NCBI GenBank assembly: GCA_965262725.1 | Contig: OZ253555.1 | Coordinates: 992,001 to 1,056,000 of the forward strand | Direction: 5' to 3' | From: Dehalococcoidia bacterium | GTDB lineage: Bacteria > Chloroflexota > Dehalococcoidia > UBA2979 | DNA length: 64,000 bases | In this document: piece after piece, positions 3,945-57,828 of the stretch | Layout of the letters: each line of letters begins with the position of its first letter | How positions within the stretch are numbered: the first letter of the stretch is position 1 | The notes under the pieces: model-generated | Told to the model about the DNA's origin: nothing | The model's database searches: none | The model's input: the letters and a program-made list of their open reading frames with translations, nothing else | Translations under genes and position numbers: made by a program

Positions 3945-4020
3945 GAACGGCCTCTCCGCAGCTCGAGGCGCCGTCCGGCCCGTCGCCGCCCGGCGTCCAC
4001 TGCCGCTGCCATTGCGTGCC

Positions 4021-4204
4021 TAGTGTCCCGAGTTGCAAATGCTGAAAACAATCGCACCGAGCCTCGCAGGCTTGGTCCGCTCAGTGGAGGCTTGGGTCGC
4101 AACTGGAACGAGCACCGGATGCGCTTCATCTCGCACAAGACCACCGACCAGATCCTTGACAACCTCACCGGATATCTCAATCGCATTTCCAATTCAGGAC
4201 ACTA
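4021..4204 (+). mobile_element. IS630-derived MITE (184 bp, TA to TA)
   Basis: Imperfect 22-bp TIRs (tagtgtcccgagttgcaaatgc vs tagtgtcctgaattggaaatgc), CTAG at both ends, and an IS630 transposase C-terminal remnant WNEHRMRFISHKTTDQILDNLTGYLNRISNSGH*; AT-richer than the flanks. Confidence 0.8.
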
Positions 4205-5443
4205 GTCGGGATCGGGATAGCGGTCGCCGATGATGTCGCACGCCTCAAGCTCGGCCACCTCCGCGGCGCTGTAGCCGAGCTCGGCGAGCACCTCGAGATT
4301 GTGCTCGCCGAGCAGCGCGCAGCGTCGCTCCCACGCGATCGGATCGGGTTGCTGCTGCCAGAGGACGCCCGTCATCATCCGCTGGCCGAGGTACGGCTGA
4401 TCGACGATTTGGAACCAGCCCCGCTCATGGAGCTGCGGCGCGGCGGGCGCCTCGTCCGGCTGGAGGACCGGGGCGGCGATCGCTCCCGCGGCCTGCAGCT
4501 CCTCCGCGATCAGGGTGGACGGTCGCTCCCGCGTGTAGGCGGCGATCGCCTCGTCGATCGCCCCCCGGGCGGCGAGCCGCCCGGTCACGGTCGCCCAGGT
4601 GTGTCCGTCCAGGGCCCACTCGGGATGTCCCAGCACCGCCGCGAGTCCCGCCCACTGCGCGTCGTCTTGGCAGACCACGTTGACCCAGCCGCCGGCCGCC
4701 GGGTAGCAGTCGTGCGGGACGATGCGGGCATCGGTGTTGCCGACGCGCTCGGGGACGCGGCGGTTGAGCGTCCACTCCGCCAGGGCCGCCGGGAGCTGCC
4801 ACTGGAGCTCCTCCACCTGCGCGAGGTCGATGAAGCCGCCGGCCCCCGTCTGCTCGCGGCGCAAGAGCGCGGCGCCCGTCGCGAAAACGATCGCGAGGGG
4901 GACGCTCGCGTCCGAGTGGAGCGCGCCCACGATCTCGTCCGGCCGCGAGCCCGGGTAGCCGCGGATCGCATGGTGCCCGGCGGCGGCGTCGAAGCCGTTC
5001 CCGAACATCAGGTAGCCCTGGTACGGCCCCCCCTGGCCCCAGCCCGCGATCGAGATCATCGTGATGAGGGGGTTGAGCGCGCGGACCGCCTCCCAGCCGA
5101 AGCCGAGCCGCTCGATCGTGCCGCCGGAGAATCCCTCCACCAGCAGGTCGGCGCCCGCGATCAGCCGCCTGAGCACCTCCGCGCCCTCCGGCCGGCGGAC
5201 GTCCACGGCAATGTTCCGCTTGTTGCGATTCCCGTGGATGTGCGAGTTGACGCGCTCGTACACGGGCCCCGGCCCCGGGGCGACGCGGCTGTCCTCTCTC
5301 AGCGGCCTCGTGACCGAGGGGCGGGGGTAGGTCTCCACCTTGATCACGTCGGCGCCCAGATCGCCGAGCAGGGTGCAGCCGAACGGACCGGCCCAGACCT
5401 CGGCCAGCTCCACGACGCGCAGCCCCGCGTAGGTGCGGCTCAT
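4202..5443 (-). CDS. Class III CoA-transferase (CaiB/BaiF), Asp-bearing subunit
   Basis: LRVVEL..VWAGP, LGADVIKVE, NRNKR, HSD motif, LGEHN. Confidence 0.9.
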   Translation of the reverse strand: MSRTYAGLRVVELAEVWAGPFGCTLLGDLGADVIKVETYPRPSVTRPLREDSRVAPGPGPVYERVNSHIHGNRNKRNIAVDVRRPEGAEVLRRLIAGADLLVEGFSGGTIERLGFGWEAVRALNPLITMISIAGWGQGGPYQGYLMFGNGFDAAAGHHAIRGYPGSRPDEIVGALHSDASVPLAIVFATGAALLRREQTGAGGFIDLAQVEELQWQLPAALAEWTLNRRVPERVGNTDARIVPHDCYPAAGGWVNVVCQDDAQWAGLAAVLGHPEWALDGHTWATVTGRLAARGAIDEAIAAYTRERPSTLIAEELQAAGAIAAPVLQPDEAPAAPQLHERGWFQIVDQPYLGQRMMTGVLWQQQPDPIAWERRCALLGEHNLEVLAELGYSAAEVAELEACDIIGDRYPDPD

Positions 5444-23780: not shown

Positions 23781-24566
23781 GTGGCCGACGCTCCCGTGCT
23801 TGTCGACGTGCGTGACGGCGTCGCGCTCGTCACGCTCAACCGACCGGAGTCGCTCAACGCGATGAACGCCGAGTCGGGCGCGCTCCTGCGCTCGGCGCTT
23901 GCGCGCGTCCACACCGACCCCTCCATCCGCGTGGGCGTCATCACCGGTGCCGGCGACCGGGCGTTCAGCGCTGGCGCCGACCTGAAGGAGTGGGCGCGAC
24001 CCGATGCGTCGGGACCCTCCGGCGGGACGGTCGACGAGATCCTCACCGTCGAGCCGTCGGACGAGACCTCGACGATCCGTGTGGCAAAGCCGTTGATCGC
24101 CGCGATCGGCGGCTACTGCCTCGGTGGCGGGCTTGAGCTCGCCCTCGCGTGCGACATACGCATCGCGACTCCGGATGCGAGCTTCGCGCTGCCGGAGGTG
24201 CGCCACGGCTTCATTCCCGGCGGCGGCGGCGTCCCCCGGCTGCTGCGTTCGATCCCCCGCTCGGCGGCGATGGAGATGATCCTCACAGGCGATCGCTGCG
24301 ACGCCGAGACCGCGCTCAGGTGGGGGATCGTGAGCCGTGTCGTGCCCCGGGAGGAGCTGCTCCCGGCGGCACTCGCTCTCGCGGGGCGTATCGCGGAGAA
24401 TGCGCCCGCCGCGATCCGCGCCGCCAAGGAGCTCTCCCGCGTCTCTTCCGACCTCCCGCTCGACGACGCGCTGCGCTTCGGTGGCGTGTTGCGCTGGGTC
24501 GTCGGGCAGACGCCGGAGGCTCGCGAGGGGCCACGCGCCTTCGCGAGGGGCCGCGCCGGGGAGTAA
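23781..24566 (+). CDS. Enoyl-CoA hydratase/isomerase
   Basis: NRPESLNAM, AFSAGADLK, GGGLELALACD, LPE. Confidence 0.92.
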   Translation: MADAPVLVDVRDGVALVTLNRPESLNAMNAESGALLRSALARVHTDPSIRVGVITGAGDRAFSAGADLKEWARPDASGPSGGTVDEILTVEPSDETSTIRVAKPLIAAIGGYCLGGGLELALACDIRIATPDASFALPEVRHGFIPGGGGVPRLLRSIPRSAAMEMILTGDRCDAETALRWGIVSRVVPREELLPAALALAGRIAENAPAAIRAAKELSRVSSDLPLDDALRFGGVLRWVVGQTPEAREGPRAFARGRAGE

Positions 24567-24677
24567 CCGCCCCGCCGTCCCAGCGTTGGCCTCGTCAGAT
24601 TCCCGTCATCGACGGGCGGTACGCTCGATTGATGCCGAACCAGGCGGCGATCGTCGAACGGTGAACGGGGGTTCGGA

Positions 24678-25700
24678 GTGAGCATGACGACCGCGACTCT
24701 CTTGTCGGCGGCGCGAGCGGAGTCCCTGCGGCGTGCGCTCGTGGTTCTGGCGGCGCTGGCCGGTGCCGCGAGCGGCCTCTACGTGCTCAGCTCGCAGCCC
24801 GCGGCGGACTTCCTCCGGGAAGGCCCCGCGCGCGTCCTCGGCGTGGAGGGCTCGGAGATCCGACTGCTGATGGGTCTGGGGTGCATGCTCGCCGCCGCCG
24901 CTGCGAGCATCGCGCTGTGGCGGCGAGTCTCGCCCGGGCGGCTCGTGCTCGCGGGCGCCGCGCTGGCCGCCGCGCTCGGCCTGGTGCACGTCCTCGCGGC
25001 ACCGGCAACGACTCTGCTCCTTCTCTCCGTCATCGTCGATCGCGCGCCGCACATCACGCGCTCTCGTCTGGTCGAGGTCGGTCCACGTCGCTATCCTGTT
25101 CGCTGGGGGGTGGGGGCCGTCGCCGGCGTCACCGCGCTGGTCGTGGTCTCCGTGGTCTCGTTCTATCTCGCCCGCCCGCTCTTCGACGAGGGCACACGCC
25201 TCGACGAGGGGCTGACCTTCGCGGTCGCGGGCCTGGTGCAGCCGACCGCGGATACGGGCGCGACCGCGCCCACAGATGCGCCGACCCCGGCACCGGCCGC
25301 GGCACCAACCGCGCCGCCAACAGCCGCCGCCTCCCCTGCCGGTGACTCGGACTCTCGCCCTCAGCAGGGCGAGCTGGTGGCGCGTGGAGAGCTCGAGGGT
25401 GCGGACGCCTTCCACACGGCGCACGGCGAGGTGCTCCTCGTTCGCTCTCCGGAGGGCGACGTGGTGCTGCGATTCCAGGACTACGAGGTGCGCAACGGCC
25501 CCGGGCTCTACGTCTACCTGACGCCGGATCCAGGGGGCGACGTGCACGCGGCCGGCGCCGTCGAACTCTCCCCGGTCCGCGCGACGAGCGGGTTCGTGAA
25601 CTACGACGTGCCCGCCGATCTTGATTCGGGCTCCTTCCGCGCCGTGGTGATCTACTGCAAGCCGTTCAGCGTCACCTTCGCCACCGCGCAGCTTCGCTAG
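24678..25700 (+). CDS. Membrane-anchored DM13-domain protein
   Basis: N-terminal TM helices, Pro/Ala/Thr linker, C-terminal H...G, NGPGLYVYL, VVIYCKPFSV.F. Confidence 0.8.
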   Translation: MSMTTATLLSAARAESLRRALVVLAALAGAASGLYVLSSQPAADFLREGPARVLGVEGSEIRLLMGLGCMLAAAAASIALWRRVSPGRLVLAGAALAAALGLVHVLAAPATTLLLLSVIVDRAPHITRSRLVEVGPRRYPVRWGVGAVAGVTALVVVSVVSFYLARPLFDEGTRLDEGLTFAVAGLVQPTADTGATAPTDAPTPAPAAAPTAPPTAAASPAGDSDSRPQQGELVARGELEGADAFHTAHGEVLLVRSPEGDVVLRFQDYEVRNGPGLYVYLTPDPGGDVHAAGAVELSPVRATSGFVNYDVPADLDSGSFRAVVIYCKPFSVTFATAQLR

Positions 25701-25739
25701 GACCCTCAGCGCGTCGCCCAGCGGTGGGCACCGAGTGGA

Positions 25740-27906
25740 TCAGGCGAGCGGGAGCAGGAAGCCGAGGGTGGTGCCGCGAGCCGCGCTGGAGGAGGCGGTC
25801 ACCTCGCCCCCGTGCTGCTCGGCGATCGCGCGCACGATCGCGAGACCGAGACCGGAGCCGTCGGCGTCGGCACGGCTCTGTTGGTCGCGTGCCCTCTCCG
25901 CGCGGTAGAAGCGCTCCCAGATGAGGGGGAGCGCTCCCTCCGCGATCGGGACACCGTCGTTGTGGACCGTCAGCCGCGCGCCGCCTCCCGTGCTCTCCAC
26001 GAGCAGCTCGATCGTCGAGTCGGGGGTTGCGTACTGGATCGCGTTGCGCAGCAGGTTCCCGATCGCCCGCTCGATCAGCGTCCCGTCGAGGGGGAAGGCC
26101 GGGATCTTCGGGTCTGCGGTCAGCAGCAGCCTGACCCCGGCGCGCTCCGCGATCGGCTTCATACCGTCCGCCACGTCGGCCGCGATCTCCTCGAGATCGA
26201 GCCGCGTGCGTCCGGAAGTCGAAGGGGTGGTGACGTGATGACGTGACCGGTCCGGAGACATGCTCGTTGCTGCCAGCCGGTGAGAGTCCGGCACGGGTAA
26301 CTGTCAGGAGGCCCGTTAGCAGGTCGGCGGCGTGGACGGGAAACGGTCTGCGTCGAAGCCCGACGTCAAGAGCCCTATGAGGGGGAGCAAACGTGCGGTC
26401 CGCAGCATGACGCGAAGTCTGCCGCGCCGTGAGACTCGCCTGTCTATTGACAGGACCAAGGAGGAGCCGAGCCCGGGTGGTCAGGGCGAAGGCCATGGAC
26501 GAGGTGAAGATCCTGGAATGCAGCCTCAAGAAACCTCCCGGCGTATGGGACGTGGAACGTACGGAAGGTAGCGACGGGAACCGGAGAAGCCCTCCCCGGC
26601 CCGGCACCCTGTGAGAGGGCGTCGGAGCGAGGCGTCCTATAACCGGTCAGAGCCGGGAAGTGGACAGCCAGCCGGAAGGGTGGCGGAGGGGGTCGTAGTA
26701 CCGCTGGAGCCGGACGGACAACATAACCGCCGGTGATGGGAAGGACCCCTACTTTGTCCGTGCATGTTGCTGGGGGTGTGGACTGGTGAGTGCCCCTCGG
26801 GGCTAGCAACCACTTGGTAGGGTTCGAGGCTCTCCGCACATGCTGTACCGGCTGGCCAAGGCACGACCCACGTTGTGGGGAGCGCTGCATGCCATCTGGT
26901 GAAGGGCATCGGTGAGCCGGATGAGGGAGAACCTCACGTCCGGTTCGATGTGGCAGGGGCTGGAGACGGACGCTGCTATGGCCGTGGAGTTGGGCACCAC
27001 CGGGAAACCGGCTTGGAACTGATGCGCCACCGCCTACGGCTCGCACCGCGCCAGCCCCTGACCCTACGCCAGTTCGCGGGCGGCGCCCGCCTCGATCCGC
27101 GCGAGCTCGAAGAGGTCGTCGATCAGGCGTGCCAGGCGGTCCACCTCGCGGCGCACAAGCGCGTGGTAGTGCGCCACGTCGGCCGGCTCGCTGACGACGC
27201 CGTCGTCGAGTGCGTCGACGGCGGCGCGGATCGCCGCAAGGGGGGTGCGCAGGTCGTGTGAGATCGCCGTGGTGATCTCCGTCCGCTCACGCTCCACCTC
27301 GGCGCGCCGCTGCTCGGCCCGGCTGAGCGAGGCCCGCAGATCATCGACCGCGCCTGCGAGCTCGCTGACCTCGTCCTTGACGATATGGGCGTCGTCGCGG
27401 GGGGAGGTCGTCTCGTCCGCCGTGCCGCCCGAGGCGAGCGCCCGGACCTCCGCGGCGAGGGAGCGGACGCGCCGCGTCGTGTCGAGAGCGCCGAGCGCCG
27501 AGACGACCGCGGCGACGCTGCCGGCCGCGAGGCTGACCGCGAGCAGCAGCCGCAGGTCGTGCGCAGTGTTTACGAACATGAACGAGGCAACGGCGAGGAC
27601 GGTTGCGAGAGCCGCCACCGCCCCCATCGAGCCGGCCACGAAGGCCCGGGCGACCAGTGGAACCCCGGCCCGGCTGATCCATCGGAGAACGAGCACGCCG
27701 ACCGCCGTGCTGACGGCCCCCGCGAGGCCGAGCAGCAGCACGAGATCTGCAAGCTCGGCGCCGGACATCGGGAGCAGGGCGCGCGACGCGACCGCCCCGA
27801 CGACGACGGCAGCGATCACACCAGCGGGCAGGAGTCGCTCAAGCCAGGCGGAGGAGAGGACGCCCGGCCCCATGCCCGCGCCCGTCTCCCGGAGACTACG
27901 GCTCAA
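25740..27906 (-). pseudogene. Sensor histidine kinase (HAMP-HisKA-HATPase) interrupted by an antisense group II intron
   Basis: 5' part has ISHDLRTPL; 3' part has NLLRNA, FYR, GSGLGLAI. Removing 26206-27067 restores the frame (...AARELA/RLDLEE...), 1305 nt = 434 aa. Confidence 0.9.
26206..27067 (+). mobile_element. ORF-less group II intron (862 nt)
   Basis: 5' GTGCG; DIII-like block near 26680-26752; domain V gagccggatgagggagaacctcacgtccggttc (26914-26946, AGC triad); domain VI ggcaggggctgg/ccagcccctg-A-cc with bulged A at 27061; 3' end AC; no RT ORF. Confidence 0.92.
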
Positions 27907-28579
27907 ACTTGTACCCCACGCCCCACACGGTCTTCAGGTAGCGCGGTCGCGACGGATCGGGCTCGAGCTTGGCGCGGAGCCGCCGCATATGGACAGTGAC
28001 CGTGTTCTCCTCCGTTTCCGTGTCGTGATCCCAGACCGCCGTGATCAACTGTTCCCGGGTGAAGACCTGCCGCGGGTGGGCGGCGAGCACAAGCAGGAGG
28101 TCGAACTCGCGCGCGGTCAGCCGCAGCTCGCCCGCGCGCGTCGTGACCGTGCGCCCTCGGCGGTCGATCCGGAGGTCGCCGTGATGCAGCACGTCGCTTC
28201 CCTCCTCGGCCCGGCCGGTGCGGCGCAGCACTGCCTCGACGCGGGCAGCGAGTTCACGCGGGCTGAACGGCTTGGTGACGTAGTCGTCGGCGCCGAAGTC
28301 GAAACCCGCCAGGCGGTCGGCCTCCCCTGCGCGCGCCGTTAGCATGACGATCGGGACGTTGCTGACGGAGCGAATGCGGCGGCAGACGTCGACGCCATCG
28401 AGACCCGGAAGCATCAGGTCGAGCACGATGAGGTCGGGCCGGAAGTCGTCGAAGGCACGCAGCGCGGCGGGACCATCCCCAGCGACCTCCACGTCGTGCC
28501 CGTCACGCTCAAGGTAGCGGACGACAACGTCCGCCACCGTCGGCTCGTCCTCGACGACGAGGACCCGGGTCGCGAGCAT
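27896..28579 (-). CDS. OmpR-family response regulator
   Basis: VLVVEDE, LDLMLPGLDG, GADDYVTKPFS, winged-helix TVWGVGY. Confidence 0.93.
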   Translation of the reverse strand: MLATRVLVVEDEPTVADVVVRYLERDGHDVEVAGDGPAALRAFDDFRPDLIVLDLMLPGLDGVDVCRRIRSVSNVPIVMLTARAGEADRLAGFDFGADDYVTKPFSPRELAARVEAVLRRTGRAEEGSDVLHHGDLRIDRRGRTVTTRAGELRLTAREFDLLLVLAAHPRQVFTREQLITAVWDHDTETEENTVTVHMRRLRAKLEPDPSRPRYLKTVWGVGYKFEP

Positions 28580-28619
28580 GGTCGCCTCCTGTGGCGCCGA
28601 CCCATCACTCCCGTCGAGC

Positions 28620-29110
28620 ATAGATGGAATGAGGGTCGGCCACCTCCCCAGAGGGGGTAGTCGCCCCCGGAGCCCGAGGCCCCGCTGGGCCAAAGAGCAA
28701 CTCCAAAGGCCTTGGCGAGGTAGGAGGCCGACCGTAACACCGCGTCAGTCACAGCGAGCAGCGAGCAGCGGGCAGGGGGGAGCAGGGGCCGTGACCATCG
28801 GCTTCGATGTGAGCGATCGCTATAGCCAGATCGGCGCGCCAAGGCAGCCGGCGCGATGAAGCGGGCACTCTCCGACCCGCGGGTCGCCCGGGTGCTGCTC
28901 GAGGTGGGTGCCGCGCGCGCCGTGGCTCAGCCGGCTCGCACCCGCGGCGAGTGGGGCTGATCGTGCGCAGCGAGCGTACGACCGACCGACTGGACGCCGA
29001 GCAGTGGCTCGGCTCGGCCGGATCGAGCGGCTCTCCTCCGCCCGTCCGGCCCCGCAGCGCCTGGGTCCAGACCGACCACGCCGACTTCGCGGCGTGCGGG
29101 CCCGGACTCC
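28620..29110 (+). mobile_element. Degenerate IS110-family element (5' non-coding end plus frameshifted N-terminal recombinase fragments)
   Basis: Fragments VTIGFDVSDRYSQ (28791), RVLLEVG, PWLSRL, TDRLDAEQ, ARLGRI in shifting frames, matching the IS110 DEDD domain. Confidence 0.7.
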
Positions 29111-57045: not shown

Positions 57046-57828
57046 ATGACAGCACCCCTCACCGACCAGGCCGCGGAGCTGACGATCGAGGCGATCTGCC
57101 GTGAGCTCCGTCTCCCCACCGTCAGGAAGCAGGCGCTCCCGCTCGCCGAAGCCGCGGTCCGAGACCGGATCACCCATCTGGGCTATCTCGCCGAAGTGCT
57201 GGGAGCCGAACGCGATGACCGTGAGGAGCGGCGCCGTCAGCGCCGTATCGTCGAGGCGCGGTTCCCGCGTTTCAAGTACCTCGCCGACTTCGACCTCGAG
57301 GCGGCGCCGACAGTCGACGCGCCGGCGCTCGCCACGCTGGAGCGCTGCGACTGGGTCGAAAGGGGCGAGCCCGTCGTCCTGCTCGGTGACAGCGGCACCG
57401 GGAAGTCACACCTGCTCATCGGCCTCGGCATGGCCGCCTGCCACCTGGGGCTGCGCGTGCGGTACATGACCACGGCCGCCCTGGTGAATGAACTGGCCGA
57501 AGCGTCGGATGATCGCGCGCTCTCACGCCTCGTCGCCCGCTACGGCCGCCTCGACCTGCTCTGCCTGGATGAGTTCGGGTACGTCCACCTCGACCCGCGC
57601 GGTGCCGAAATGCTGTTCCAGATCCTGACCGAGCGCGAGGAACGGGCATCGGTCGCCGTCGCCTCCAACTCCCCGTTCTCCGAGTGGGGCCGCATCTTCA
57701 CCGACCCTCGTCTCGCCGCGGCCGTCGTTGACCGCCTCACCTACCGTGCCCATATCATCGAGACCGGCACCGGGTCCTACCGGCTCCGGGCCTCGACCTC
57801 CCCGAGAGGAGGTGCCCCAACGACCTGA
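57046..57828 (+). CDS. istB: IS21 helper ATPase
   Basis: GDSGTGKSH, LLCLDEFGY, AVVDRL. Confidence 0.94.
   Translation: MTAPLTDQAAELTIEAICRELRLPTVRKQALPLAEAAVRDRITHLGYLAEVLGAERDDREERRRQRRIVEARFPRFKYLADFDLEAAPTVDAPALATLERCDWVERGEPVVLLGDSGTGKSHLLIGLGMAACHLGLRVRYMTTAALVNELAEASDDRALSRLVARYGRLDLLCLDEFGYVHLDPRGAEMLFQILTEREERASVAVASNSPFSEWGRIFTDPRLAAAVVDRLTYRAHIIETGTGSYRLRASTSPRGGAPTT

Follow-up and report, generated by a model that had tools for sequence, protein, structure and literature searches.

Nested group II introns, some without an open reading frame (ORF) and others encoding a reverse transcriptase (RT), were reportedly described by Dai and Zimmerly in 2003 in Methanosarcina acetivorans. 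Mobilization of ORF-less introns in trans by the intron-encoded protein (IEP) of a relative has been shown experimentally in Escherichia coli for introns of Thermosynechococcus elongatus (Mohr, Ghanem & Lambowitz 2010, PMC2882425). According to that account, 17 of the 28 introns of T. elongatus are ORF-less, exon-binding sites (EBS) pair well with intron-binding sites (IBS) at new sites, and some introns are nested within others as twintrons (PMC2882425). Among other described variants, the B.c.I4-type introns of Bacillus cereus carry a 3′ extension (PMC1865049, PMC2691827), and the delta-ORF intron EcKTE56.groEL integrates in tandem at its own occupied homing site (PMC12584367). Introns without an endonuclease that use the replication fork are expected to show replication-linked orientation (Zimmerly & Semper 2015, PMC4424553), and strand bias has been described for ORF-less and other intron types (Miura et al. 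2022, PMC8919778). Here we analysed a 64,000-nt stretch, hereafter the window, of the genome of a Dehalococcoidia bacterium (assembly GCA_965262725.1, contig OZ253555.1, positions 992,001 to 1,056,000), in which an 862-nt ORF-less group II intron, which we call mini, interrupts a sensor kinase gene. We conclude that mini is very probably a non-autonomous group II intron mobilized in trans and that its kinase copy arose by a recent ectopic reverse-splicing event.

An ORF-less intron in a sensor kinase gene

An initial annotation, made by a model from the nucleotide sequence alone, had placed an ORF-less group II intron with a long domain VI (DVI) at 26206-27067, antisense to the kinase gene, and our analysis bears this out. 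Using Rfam, we found a single gathering-level RNA match in the 64-kb window, a full-length hit to RF02003, such that the covariance-model check of domains I to IV does not fail (Table 1). A permissive scan also placed the RF00029 model of domain V (DV) and DVI at 26912-27067; because of ~100 nt inserted inside DVI, its score of 37.5 bits falls slightly short of the gathering score of 40. The termini, GTGCG and ...CCCTAC, fit the GUGYG and AY ends of group II introns. Its predicted structure makes mini an ORF-less group II intron in which no ribozyme domain is missing, all six being present, and by sequence it falls within a lineage of endonuclease-less introns whose DVI is extended. The relic in domain IV aligns with both ends of the RT ORF of two related introns of the same genome, here called A and B, covering ~27 codons at the start and ~12 at the end; this agrees with its reading in the annotation as the two ends of an RT ORF joined together.

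Mini lies antisense within the kinase gene, between the part encoding HAMP and HisKA and that encoding HATPase_c. Its removal in silico joins ...ELARIEAGAARELA to RLDLEEIAADV, which restores the kinase frame with zero duplicated bases, in agreement with the claim of a precise insertion without duplication. In antisense orientation, an intron does not belong to the spliceable transcript of its host gene. The kinase is therefore cut between HisKA, which holds the phospho-acceptor, and HATPase_c, and the proposed truncation before the ATPase domain is borne out by a 280-residue fragment whose translation ends ...RELA before a TAG stop supplied by the last bases of the intron. The two-component system would thereby keep its regulator and lose its catalytic kinase, a direct cost of the intron burst described below, as an antisense copy is not spliced away.

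Intron-free alleles, a point raised in the annotation, do exist. The kinase is uninterrupted in all 4 same-genus genomes, with frames of 453-480 codons, 85-91% identity and no gap across the junction. We also compared contigs of four public runs with window 24500-29000. Three of the runs, each from a different study, contain one contig that jumps over precisely 862 nt at this place; the flanks of one of these contigs (926 + 1,220 nt, 2,146 nt in all) match the window with 0 differences. In the fourth run, contigs enter the intron from both flanks and none skips mini, leaving occupied junctions only. The insertion is thus recent and varies among near-identical strains, and these alignments are best read as a recent, strain-specific knock-out. 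In all four runs, contig depth at 28124-28425 is 10-100x that of the flanks, with many short joints; this peak is the conserved receiver domain of the response regulator attracting contigs of other organisms and is not a feature of the locus. A protein-atlas comparison of this regulator gave mixed phyla. The annotation further suggested that the truncated kinase might be a phosphatase-only or dominant-negative product and that read-through from the convergent DM13 gene might supply the intron RNA; a simple scan of 25500-27300 found no promoter-like or terminator-like sites, a result that is uninformative in a 70% G+C genome.

The length of DVI was assessed in an alignment from DV to the 3′ end of 35 introns, comprising mini, its full-length relatives A and B, and 32 relatives from other species. 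Taken together, the 28 pairs of DV, the basal DVI helix and a second helix of 3 pairs form in 98.4% of cells, compared with 35-45% in controls in which the 3′ partner was slid by 1-3 columns. The 13 pairs of DV form in 99.1% of cells, with 5 changing on both sides, and the 12 bp of the basal DVI helix in 99.8%, with 8 changing on both sides. The closing helix of DVI stops 4 nt short of the 3′ end, and the bulged A at 27061, seven nt from that end, is invariant in the 35 sequences. The minimum free energy fold of 26900-27067, covering DV and DVI, has a z-score of -4.66. Together, these data indicate that the long DVI is real as a predicted structure. The stretch after DV measures 55 to 140 nt among the relatives, so that the DVI insertion is a lineage trait.

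A different reading of the ~90 extra nt after DV is that they form a B.c.I4-type 3′ extension, with a short DVI followed by a seventh element and splicing far downstream of the branch helix. The Rfam DV-DVI model leans this way in intron A, where its preferred DVI is short and stops 87 nt upstream of the true 3′ end (41.5 bits). That end is set by empty target sites: 14 blast matches span the joined flanks of A, none with a length indicating the 2.9-kb insert of A plus mini. Against a displaced splice site stand the long helix closing close to the 3′ end, with its covarying pairs and invariant bulged A, and the finding that the relatives vary in the size of the distal insertion only, which makes the extension very unlikely. 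Mini was accordingly not placed in the B.c.I4 type, as its extra sequence is inside DVI and the 3′ splice site is not displaced from the branch helix.

Table 1. Features of the window around the interrupted kinase gene (positions are those of the window)
Feature	Positions	Strand	Details
DM13-domain gene, on the same strand as the intron and upstream of it; converges on the kinase	24678..25700	+	Pfam DM13 1.7e-11
Kinase 3′ fragment, HATPase_c, severed from its start	25740..26205	-	Pfam HATPase_c 1.6e-23 (stretch 26204..25743)
5′ exon target	26192..26205	+	IBS2 26192-26197 CGAGAT; IBS1 26201-26205 GCCGC
ORF-less group II intron (mini), 862 nt	26206..27067	+	Boundaries from 24 intact identical copies, ungapped empty sites in 4 same-genus genomes and contigs in 3 runs skipping exactly 862 nt
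Domain I core, Rfam RF02003 (group-II-D1D4-4)	26274..26410	+	102.8 bits, gathering score 49; model 1-138 of 138
EBS2 (GACUCG)	26433..26438	+	Complementary to CGAGTC, -14..-9 of the homing site
EBS1 (GUGGU), hairpin loop closed by GCCC/GGGC	26477..26481	+	Pairs with ACCGC, -5..-1 of the homing site
Domain IV remnant of RT ORF	26786..26902	+	GTG start remnant 26786, TGA stop remnant 26900-26902, ~1.2 kb deleted between
Domain V	26914..26946	+	AGC triad 26915-26917, 2-nt bulge; matched by RF00029 and two plastid D5 models
Extended domain VI, 112 nt	26952..27063	+	12-bp basal helix, bulged branch-point A 27061, distal insertion with GAAA-capped hairpin 27000-27011
Kinase 5′ fragment, 280 aa, HAMP + HisKA	27064..27906	-	Pfam HisKA 1.1e-17, HAMP 3.6e-06
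OmpR-type response regulator, intact, upstream partner of the kinase	27896..28693	-	Pfam Response_reg + Trans_reg_C

Copies, homing sites and orientation

The genome, a single contig (C1 of genome G000) of 3,674,403 nt and 70.6% G+C, holds 28 copies of mini: 24 are intact and 100% identical, one lacks the last 5 nt and three are interrupted by other mobile elements. All 28 have the same deletion breakpoints, and the flanks are unique for each. More than half (16/28) occupy one site inside the RT ORFs of introns A (12 copies) and B (3 copies), whereas the other 12 are ectopic. Homing-site copies are sense-oriented, on the same strand as the outer intron, and so form twintrons. One of the 12 A introns holds two head-to-tail minis (C1:549500-551223), as would result if a second mini had inserted at the 5′ junction of the resident one, whose first G would have served as +1.

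The homing site reads ...GTTTCGAGTCGATACCGC/ACGACCG, the slash marking the insertion point, which can also be written ...TTCGAGTCGATACCGC/A and is the same site as ...TTCGAGTCGATACCGC/ACGACC; the mini-free joint of A and B across it is ...GATACCGC/ACGACC. It encodes CFESIP/HDRL and splits the Pfam RVT_1 match at approximately profile position 84-89 of 205. The 16-nt upstream half-site occurs 15 times in the genome, each time followed by mini, and no empty homing site was found among these 15. Thus no cognate RT gene is continuous, and we found no continuous A- or B-type RT domain in the genome.

Without mini, introns A and B measure 2,074 and 2,080 nt. Over mini nt 1-551 (domains I to III), they are 86% and 79% identical to it, and mini is collinear with both through these domains to the first ~27 RT codons, and then over the last ~12 codons, DV and DVI. 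The minis inside A and inside B do not differ (100% identity), whereas A and B themselves share only ~80%; mini must therefore have entered them separately and recently. Removing mini from A in silico opens a frame of 461 codons (445 from GTG) with RVT_1, GIIM and a YADD motif; no endonuclease domain was found in this frame. A same-genus genome has a very similar ORF of 444 residues without interruption, in which the corresponding site departs from the homing site at a single base. Matches in the PDB confirm the A/B IEP as a group II RT only, with the GsI-IIC RT as the best (3e-58). A GTG at 26875 in mini opens a frame (window 26875-27067) through DV and DVI and past the 3′ splice site; in A twintrons (for example, L015 2300-3153), it extends into the C-terminal half of the RT/maturase as a 346-codon open frame. 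An N-terminally truncated RT/maturase could in principle be made from it without splicing, and the frame may well be due to chance at 70% G+C.

The 12 composites of A plus mini differ from one another by 0-2 bases and lie in diverged variants of a repeated element resembling an insertion sequence (IS), of which 14 further copies are without A. One copy of the element, at 95% identity and with the A site empty, is in the window itself (4014-4205, minus strand). The window also holds an IstB-like ATPase match (57364-57654, plus strand), one of 15 identical genomic copies; the same match occurs inside five introns with an extra insertion of at least ~2.6 kb (one mini, two A and two B). An apparent fourth intron type at C1:1874882 proved to be a truncated B copy invaded by an IS and by an intron of another family, D. 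Family D is of the Rfam RF02005 D1D4-6 type, and its 12 intact RT ORFs (475-500 aa) are the only continuous group II RT genes of the genome.

Ectopic copies have exact 862-nt boundaries without target-site duplication, and empty sites exist. Sense insertions were found in genes for an RNase_T-type exonuclease, a cadherin-like surface protein, an ABC-2 permease and a DUF429 protein, just upstream of NAD kinase and in the RT ORF of a family-D intron. Antisense insertions affect the kinase, the start of an IS630-type transposase gene and a phosphotriesterase-family gene (Pfam PTE 1.1e-68), the last truncated at profile position 261 of 298 by the copy at C1:537614-538475. For the remaining three ectopic copies there was no clear ORF hit. 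One mini copy (733701..736485) contains, in the terminal loop of its DV (mini nt 722/723), a 1.92-kb intron of RF02005 D1D4-6 type (G000:C1:734423-736345). A 92.7%-identical element sits at the equivalent position in two A-like introns in a genome of another genus (L122 6371-8286; L123 479-2396), and it looks as if RF02005-type introns home into the catalytic domain of a different intron family.

We searched the genomes of 40 relatives, many of them fragmented and with repeats often unassembled, and did not find the ORF-less mini; 4 had matches, all of them ORF-bearing relatives or fragments. Related IEPs (51-73% identity) are common in metagenome-assembled genomes of Actinomycetota and present in some other phyla. 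Among 80 loci fetched with related IEPs from other species, 77 had one related 5′ ribozyme part and none had a second, so that no nested relative was seen. At the single locus with an interrupted ORF, in another metagenome-assembled genome (L119 3001-4901), the IEP match spans 1,901 nt for 294 residues, indicating an ORF insertion of ~1 kb, which is not a related intron 5′ part.

Target sites pair with the intron. At the homing site, EBS2 and EBS1 pair at 6/6 and 5/5 positions. At the kinase site, IBS2 forms five of six pairs with EBS2 (4 Watson-Crick, 1 G-U) and IBS1 five of five with EBS1 (3 Watson-Crick, 2 G-U), followed by G at +1; across the 12 ectopic sites, with G-U counted, 4-6 of 6 IBS2 pairs and 4-5 of 5 IBS1 pairs are formed. 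At the EBS positions, A carries CAAUU and CGGAU, facing GGTTG and ATCCG in its target, and B carries ACCC and GAGUCC, facing GGGT and GGACTC; EBS1 and EBS2 of the three introns thus change together with their targets. In all nine related introns compared, including those of three other genomes, the EBS1 loop matches its own 5′ flank at 4-5 of 5 positions.

Orientation follows replication. Cumulative GC skew has its minimum near 0.41 Mb, with dnaA at 0.478 Mb, and its maximum near 2.52 Mb. The eight ectopic copies between 0.54 and 2.54 Mb are all on the plus strand and the four outside are all on the minus strand, with orientation flipping at both skew extremes, the minimum lying near dnaA. The sign of the local skew matches the orientation of 11 of the 12 copies at ±50 kb and of 12/12 at ±100 kb. 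The same rule of position relative to the skew minimum and maximum holds for 10/12 A and 3/3 B introns; ±50-kb local skew disagrees for two introns that follow it, A at C1:12799 and B at C1:405353. The sense strand of mini thus lies in the lagging-strand template. As the kinase is a lagging-strand gene, this preference explains the antisense outcome. Within the falling-skew replichore, cumulative skew rises slightly over G000:C1:1-280000, which could reflect a rearrangement or mobile-element load.

Helper protein and rival accounts

The case from sequence for mobility of mini by reverse splicing is strong. A single deletion of ~1.2 kb would have removed its RT/maturase ORF. Splicing of the inner mini from the RNA of an outer A or B intron would restore the 445-codon ORF for RT and X, and the resulting A/B protein would bind, splice and mobilize mini in trans. 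The sequences indicate that the ribonucleoprotein occasionally reverse-splices into ectopic DNA that pairs with EBS2 and EBS1, with the lagging-strand template preferred, and that one such copy recently entered antisense to the lagging-strand kinase gene, leaving the 280-residue fragment. The annotation had already proposed trans-mobility, and the proposal gains from the 28 copies with one deletion and from the related RT-encoding introns in the same genome. Its idea of an RT-encoding parent stood in part: A and B do encode RVT_1 and GIIM, but every such ORF is split by mini, which had not been foreseen. As mini splits the RT core of A and B, production of the A/B protein requires prior splicing of mini from the outer RNA. 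The loop could be kept running by self-splicing of mini, by protein carried over from earlier cycles or by a family-D protein. We infer that the A/B protein is the natural candidate for driving the mobility of mini.

A tentative extension, possible but doubtful, is that of an obligate nested circuit of parasite and helper, in which mini fills all 15 of the RT genes on which it depends, in the core of the RT domain. If so, mini would gate a shared factor for splicing and mobility while presumably needing that same protein to splice and move. Retromobility would then be self-reinforcing: its on or off state would be handed down by way of the protein, or set going by infrequent self-splicing or a non-cognate RT.

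Several points weigh against mobilization in trans by the A/B protein. The effect on the kinase is read from DNA sequence; none of the 20 runs that contain the sequence is recorded as RNA, nor is an RNA source listed among the 24 runs returned. The source of the RT/maturase is itself deduced, there being no continuous cognate gene, and the first inner splicing must be protein-free or use a non-cognate protein. Copy number and 100% identity come from one assembly, and polishing can homogenize repeats. Two of the 12 A twintrons are oriented counter to the direction of replication. Finally, ~7,000 genomic positions pair with EBS1 and EBS2 as well as the kinase site does, compared with only 12 ectopic copies; pairing is therefore necessary, but not sufficient, for the choice of site.

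The protein could instead come from the intact ORFs of family D, or mini could self-splice and need only a promiscuous RT. Group II IEPs are usually specific for their own DIVa. Mini retains an A-like ORF-start region, the usual location of the IEP-binding DIVa site, while the D protein is only 38% identical to the A protein and the D ribozyme matches a different Rfam model with no blastn similarity to mini. This specificity counts against a family-D helper, which we therefore regard as unlikely, even though all 15 A/B ORFs are interrupted, continuous group II RT genes are confined to family D in this genome, and relaxed 'driver' IEPs are known from T. elongatus (PMC2882425). Alternatively, the copies may have spread as DNA, through segmental duplication, IS carriage or gene conversion, or be an assembly artefact; the near-identical A composites in the repeated IS-like element fit this account, and some of these may have been co-copied. 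Their presence in diverged variants of that element, however, argues otherwise, as do the unique flanks, exact boundaries and missing target duplications of the ectopic copies, their conserved IBS2/IBS1 pairing, their replication-linked strand bias and the recovery of both filled and empty kinase junctions in independent runs, so that we give this account hardly any weight. The chance that a full-length intron entered the kinase and lost its ORF there, as a single decayed copy, is practically nil: ORF remnants do flank the deletion, but 28 copies share identical breakpoints and sequence, and the kinase site is empty in an otherwise identical strain. The genome-wide census of copies refutes that reading, which the annotation had named as the outcome that would count against trans-mobility.

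Comparison with known systems

Mini is of a kind already known, a trans-mobilized ORF-less group II intron with twintron homing. What is unusual is its full occupancy of every helper RT gene, together with the scale and freshness of the spread and a host-gene knock-out caught as a polymorphism.

The closest parallel is with the TeI3 and TeI4 introns of T. elongatus, the one well-studied case of proliferation and a model for the spread of introns with a common splicing apparatus. As described there, those introns, like mini, lost their ORF through one deletion that left N- and C-terminal remnants, have many identical ORF-less copies that outnumber the ORF-bearing relatives, and have relatives diverged into families with differing EBS sequences (PMC2882425). 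The nests differ: in the T. elongatus arrangement reported, the inner intron lies between the first two ATGs, so that translation from the second ATG does not depend on inner splicing, and the ORFs of two introns remain continuous (PMC2882425), whereas here 15/15 cognate ORFs are split in the RT core. Trans action was also demonstrated by experiment in that work (PMC2882425), while for mini we infer it from sequence, and the lineage of mini is endonuclease-less with an extended DVI.

Mini resembles the M. acetivorans introns, as reviewed in PMC4424553, in homing site-specifically into sequences or ORFs of related group II introns, by which a homing site is perpetually available and nests of several levels arise, although mini also has 12 ectopic chromosomal copies, several of them inside host genes. 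With endonuclease-less, fork-priming introns as outlined in PMC4424553 and PMC8919778, it shares a related IEP with RT and X only and an orientation that follows replication. The head-to-tail pair of minis in one A twintron resembles the tandem integration of EcKTE56.groEL, which the account in PMC12584367 places in an over-expression assay in E. coli, whereas the pair here is a natural genomic arrangement. With B.c.I4-type introns, as their published descriptions have them, mini has in common ~55-100 extra nt between DV and the 3′ splice site; in mini, however, the addition lies inside DVI and the branch A is at a normal distance from the 3′ end.

Thus, this genome can stand beside T. elongatus as a second such natural system, one from another intron lineage, with a very recent burst of identical copies, filled and empty host-gene alleles that coexist in public samples and a clear replication-linked strand bias, and in which every helper gene is hostage to its dependant.

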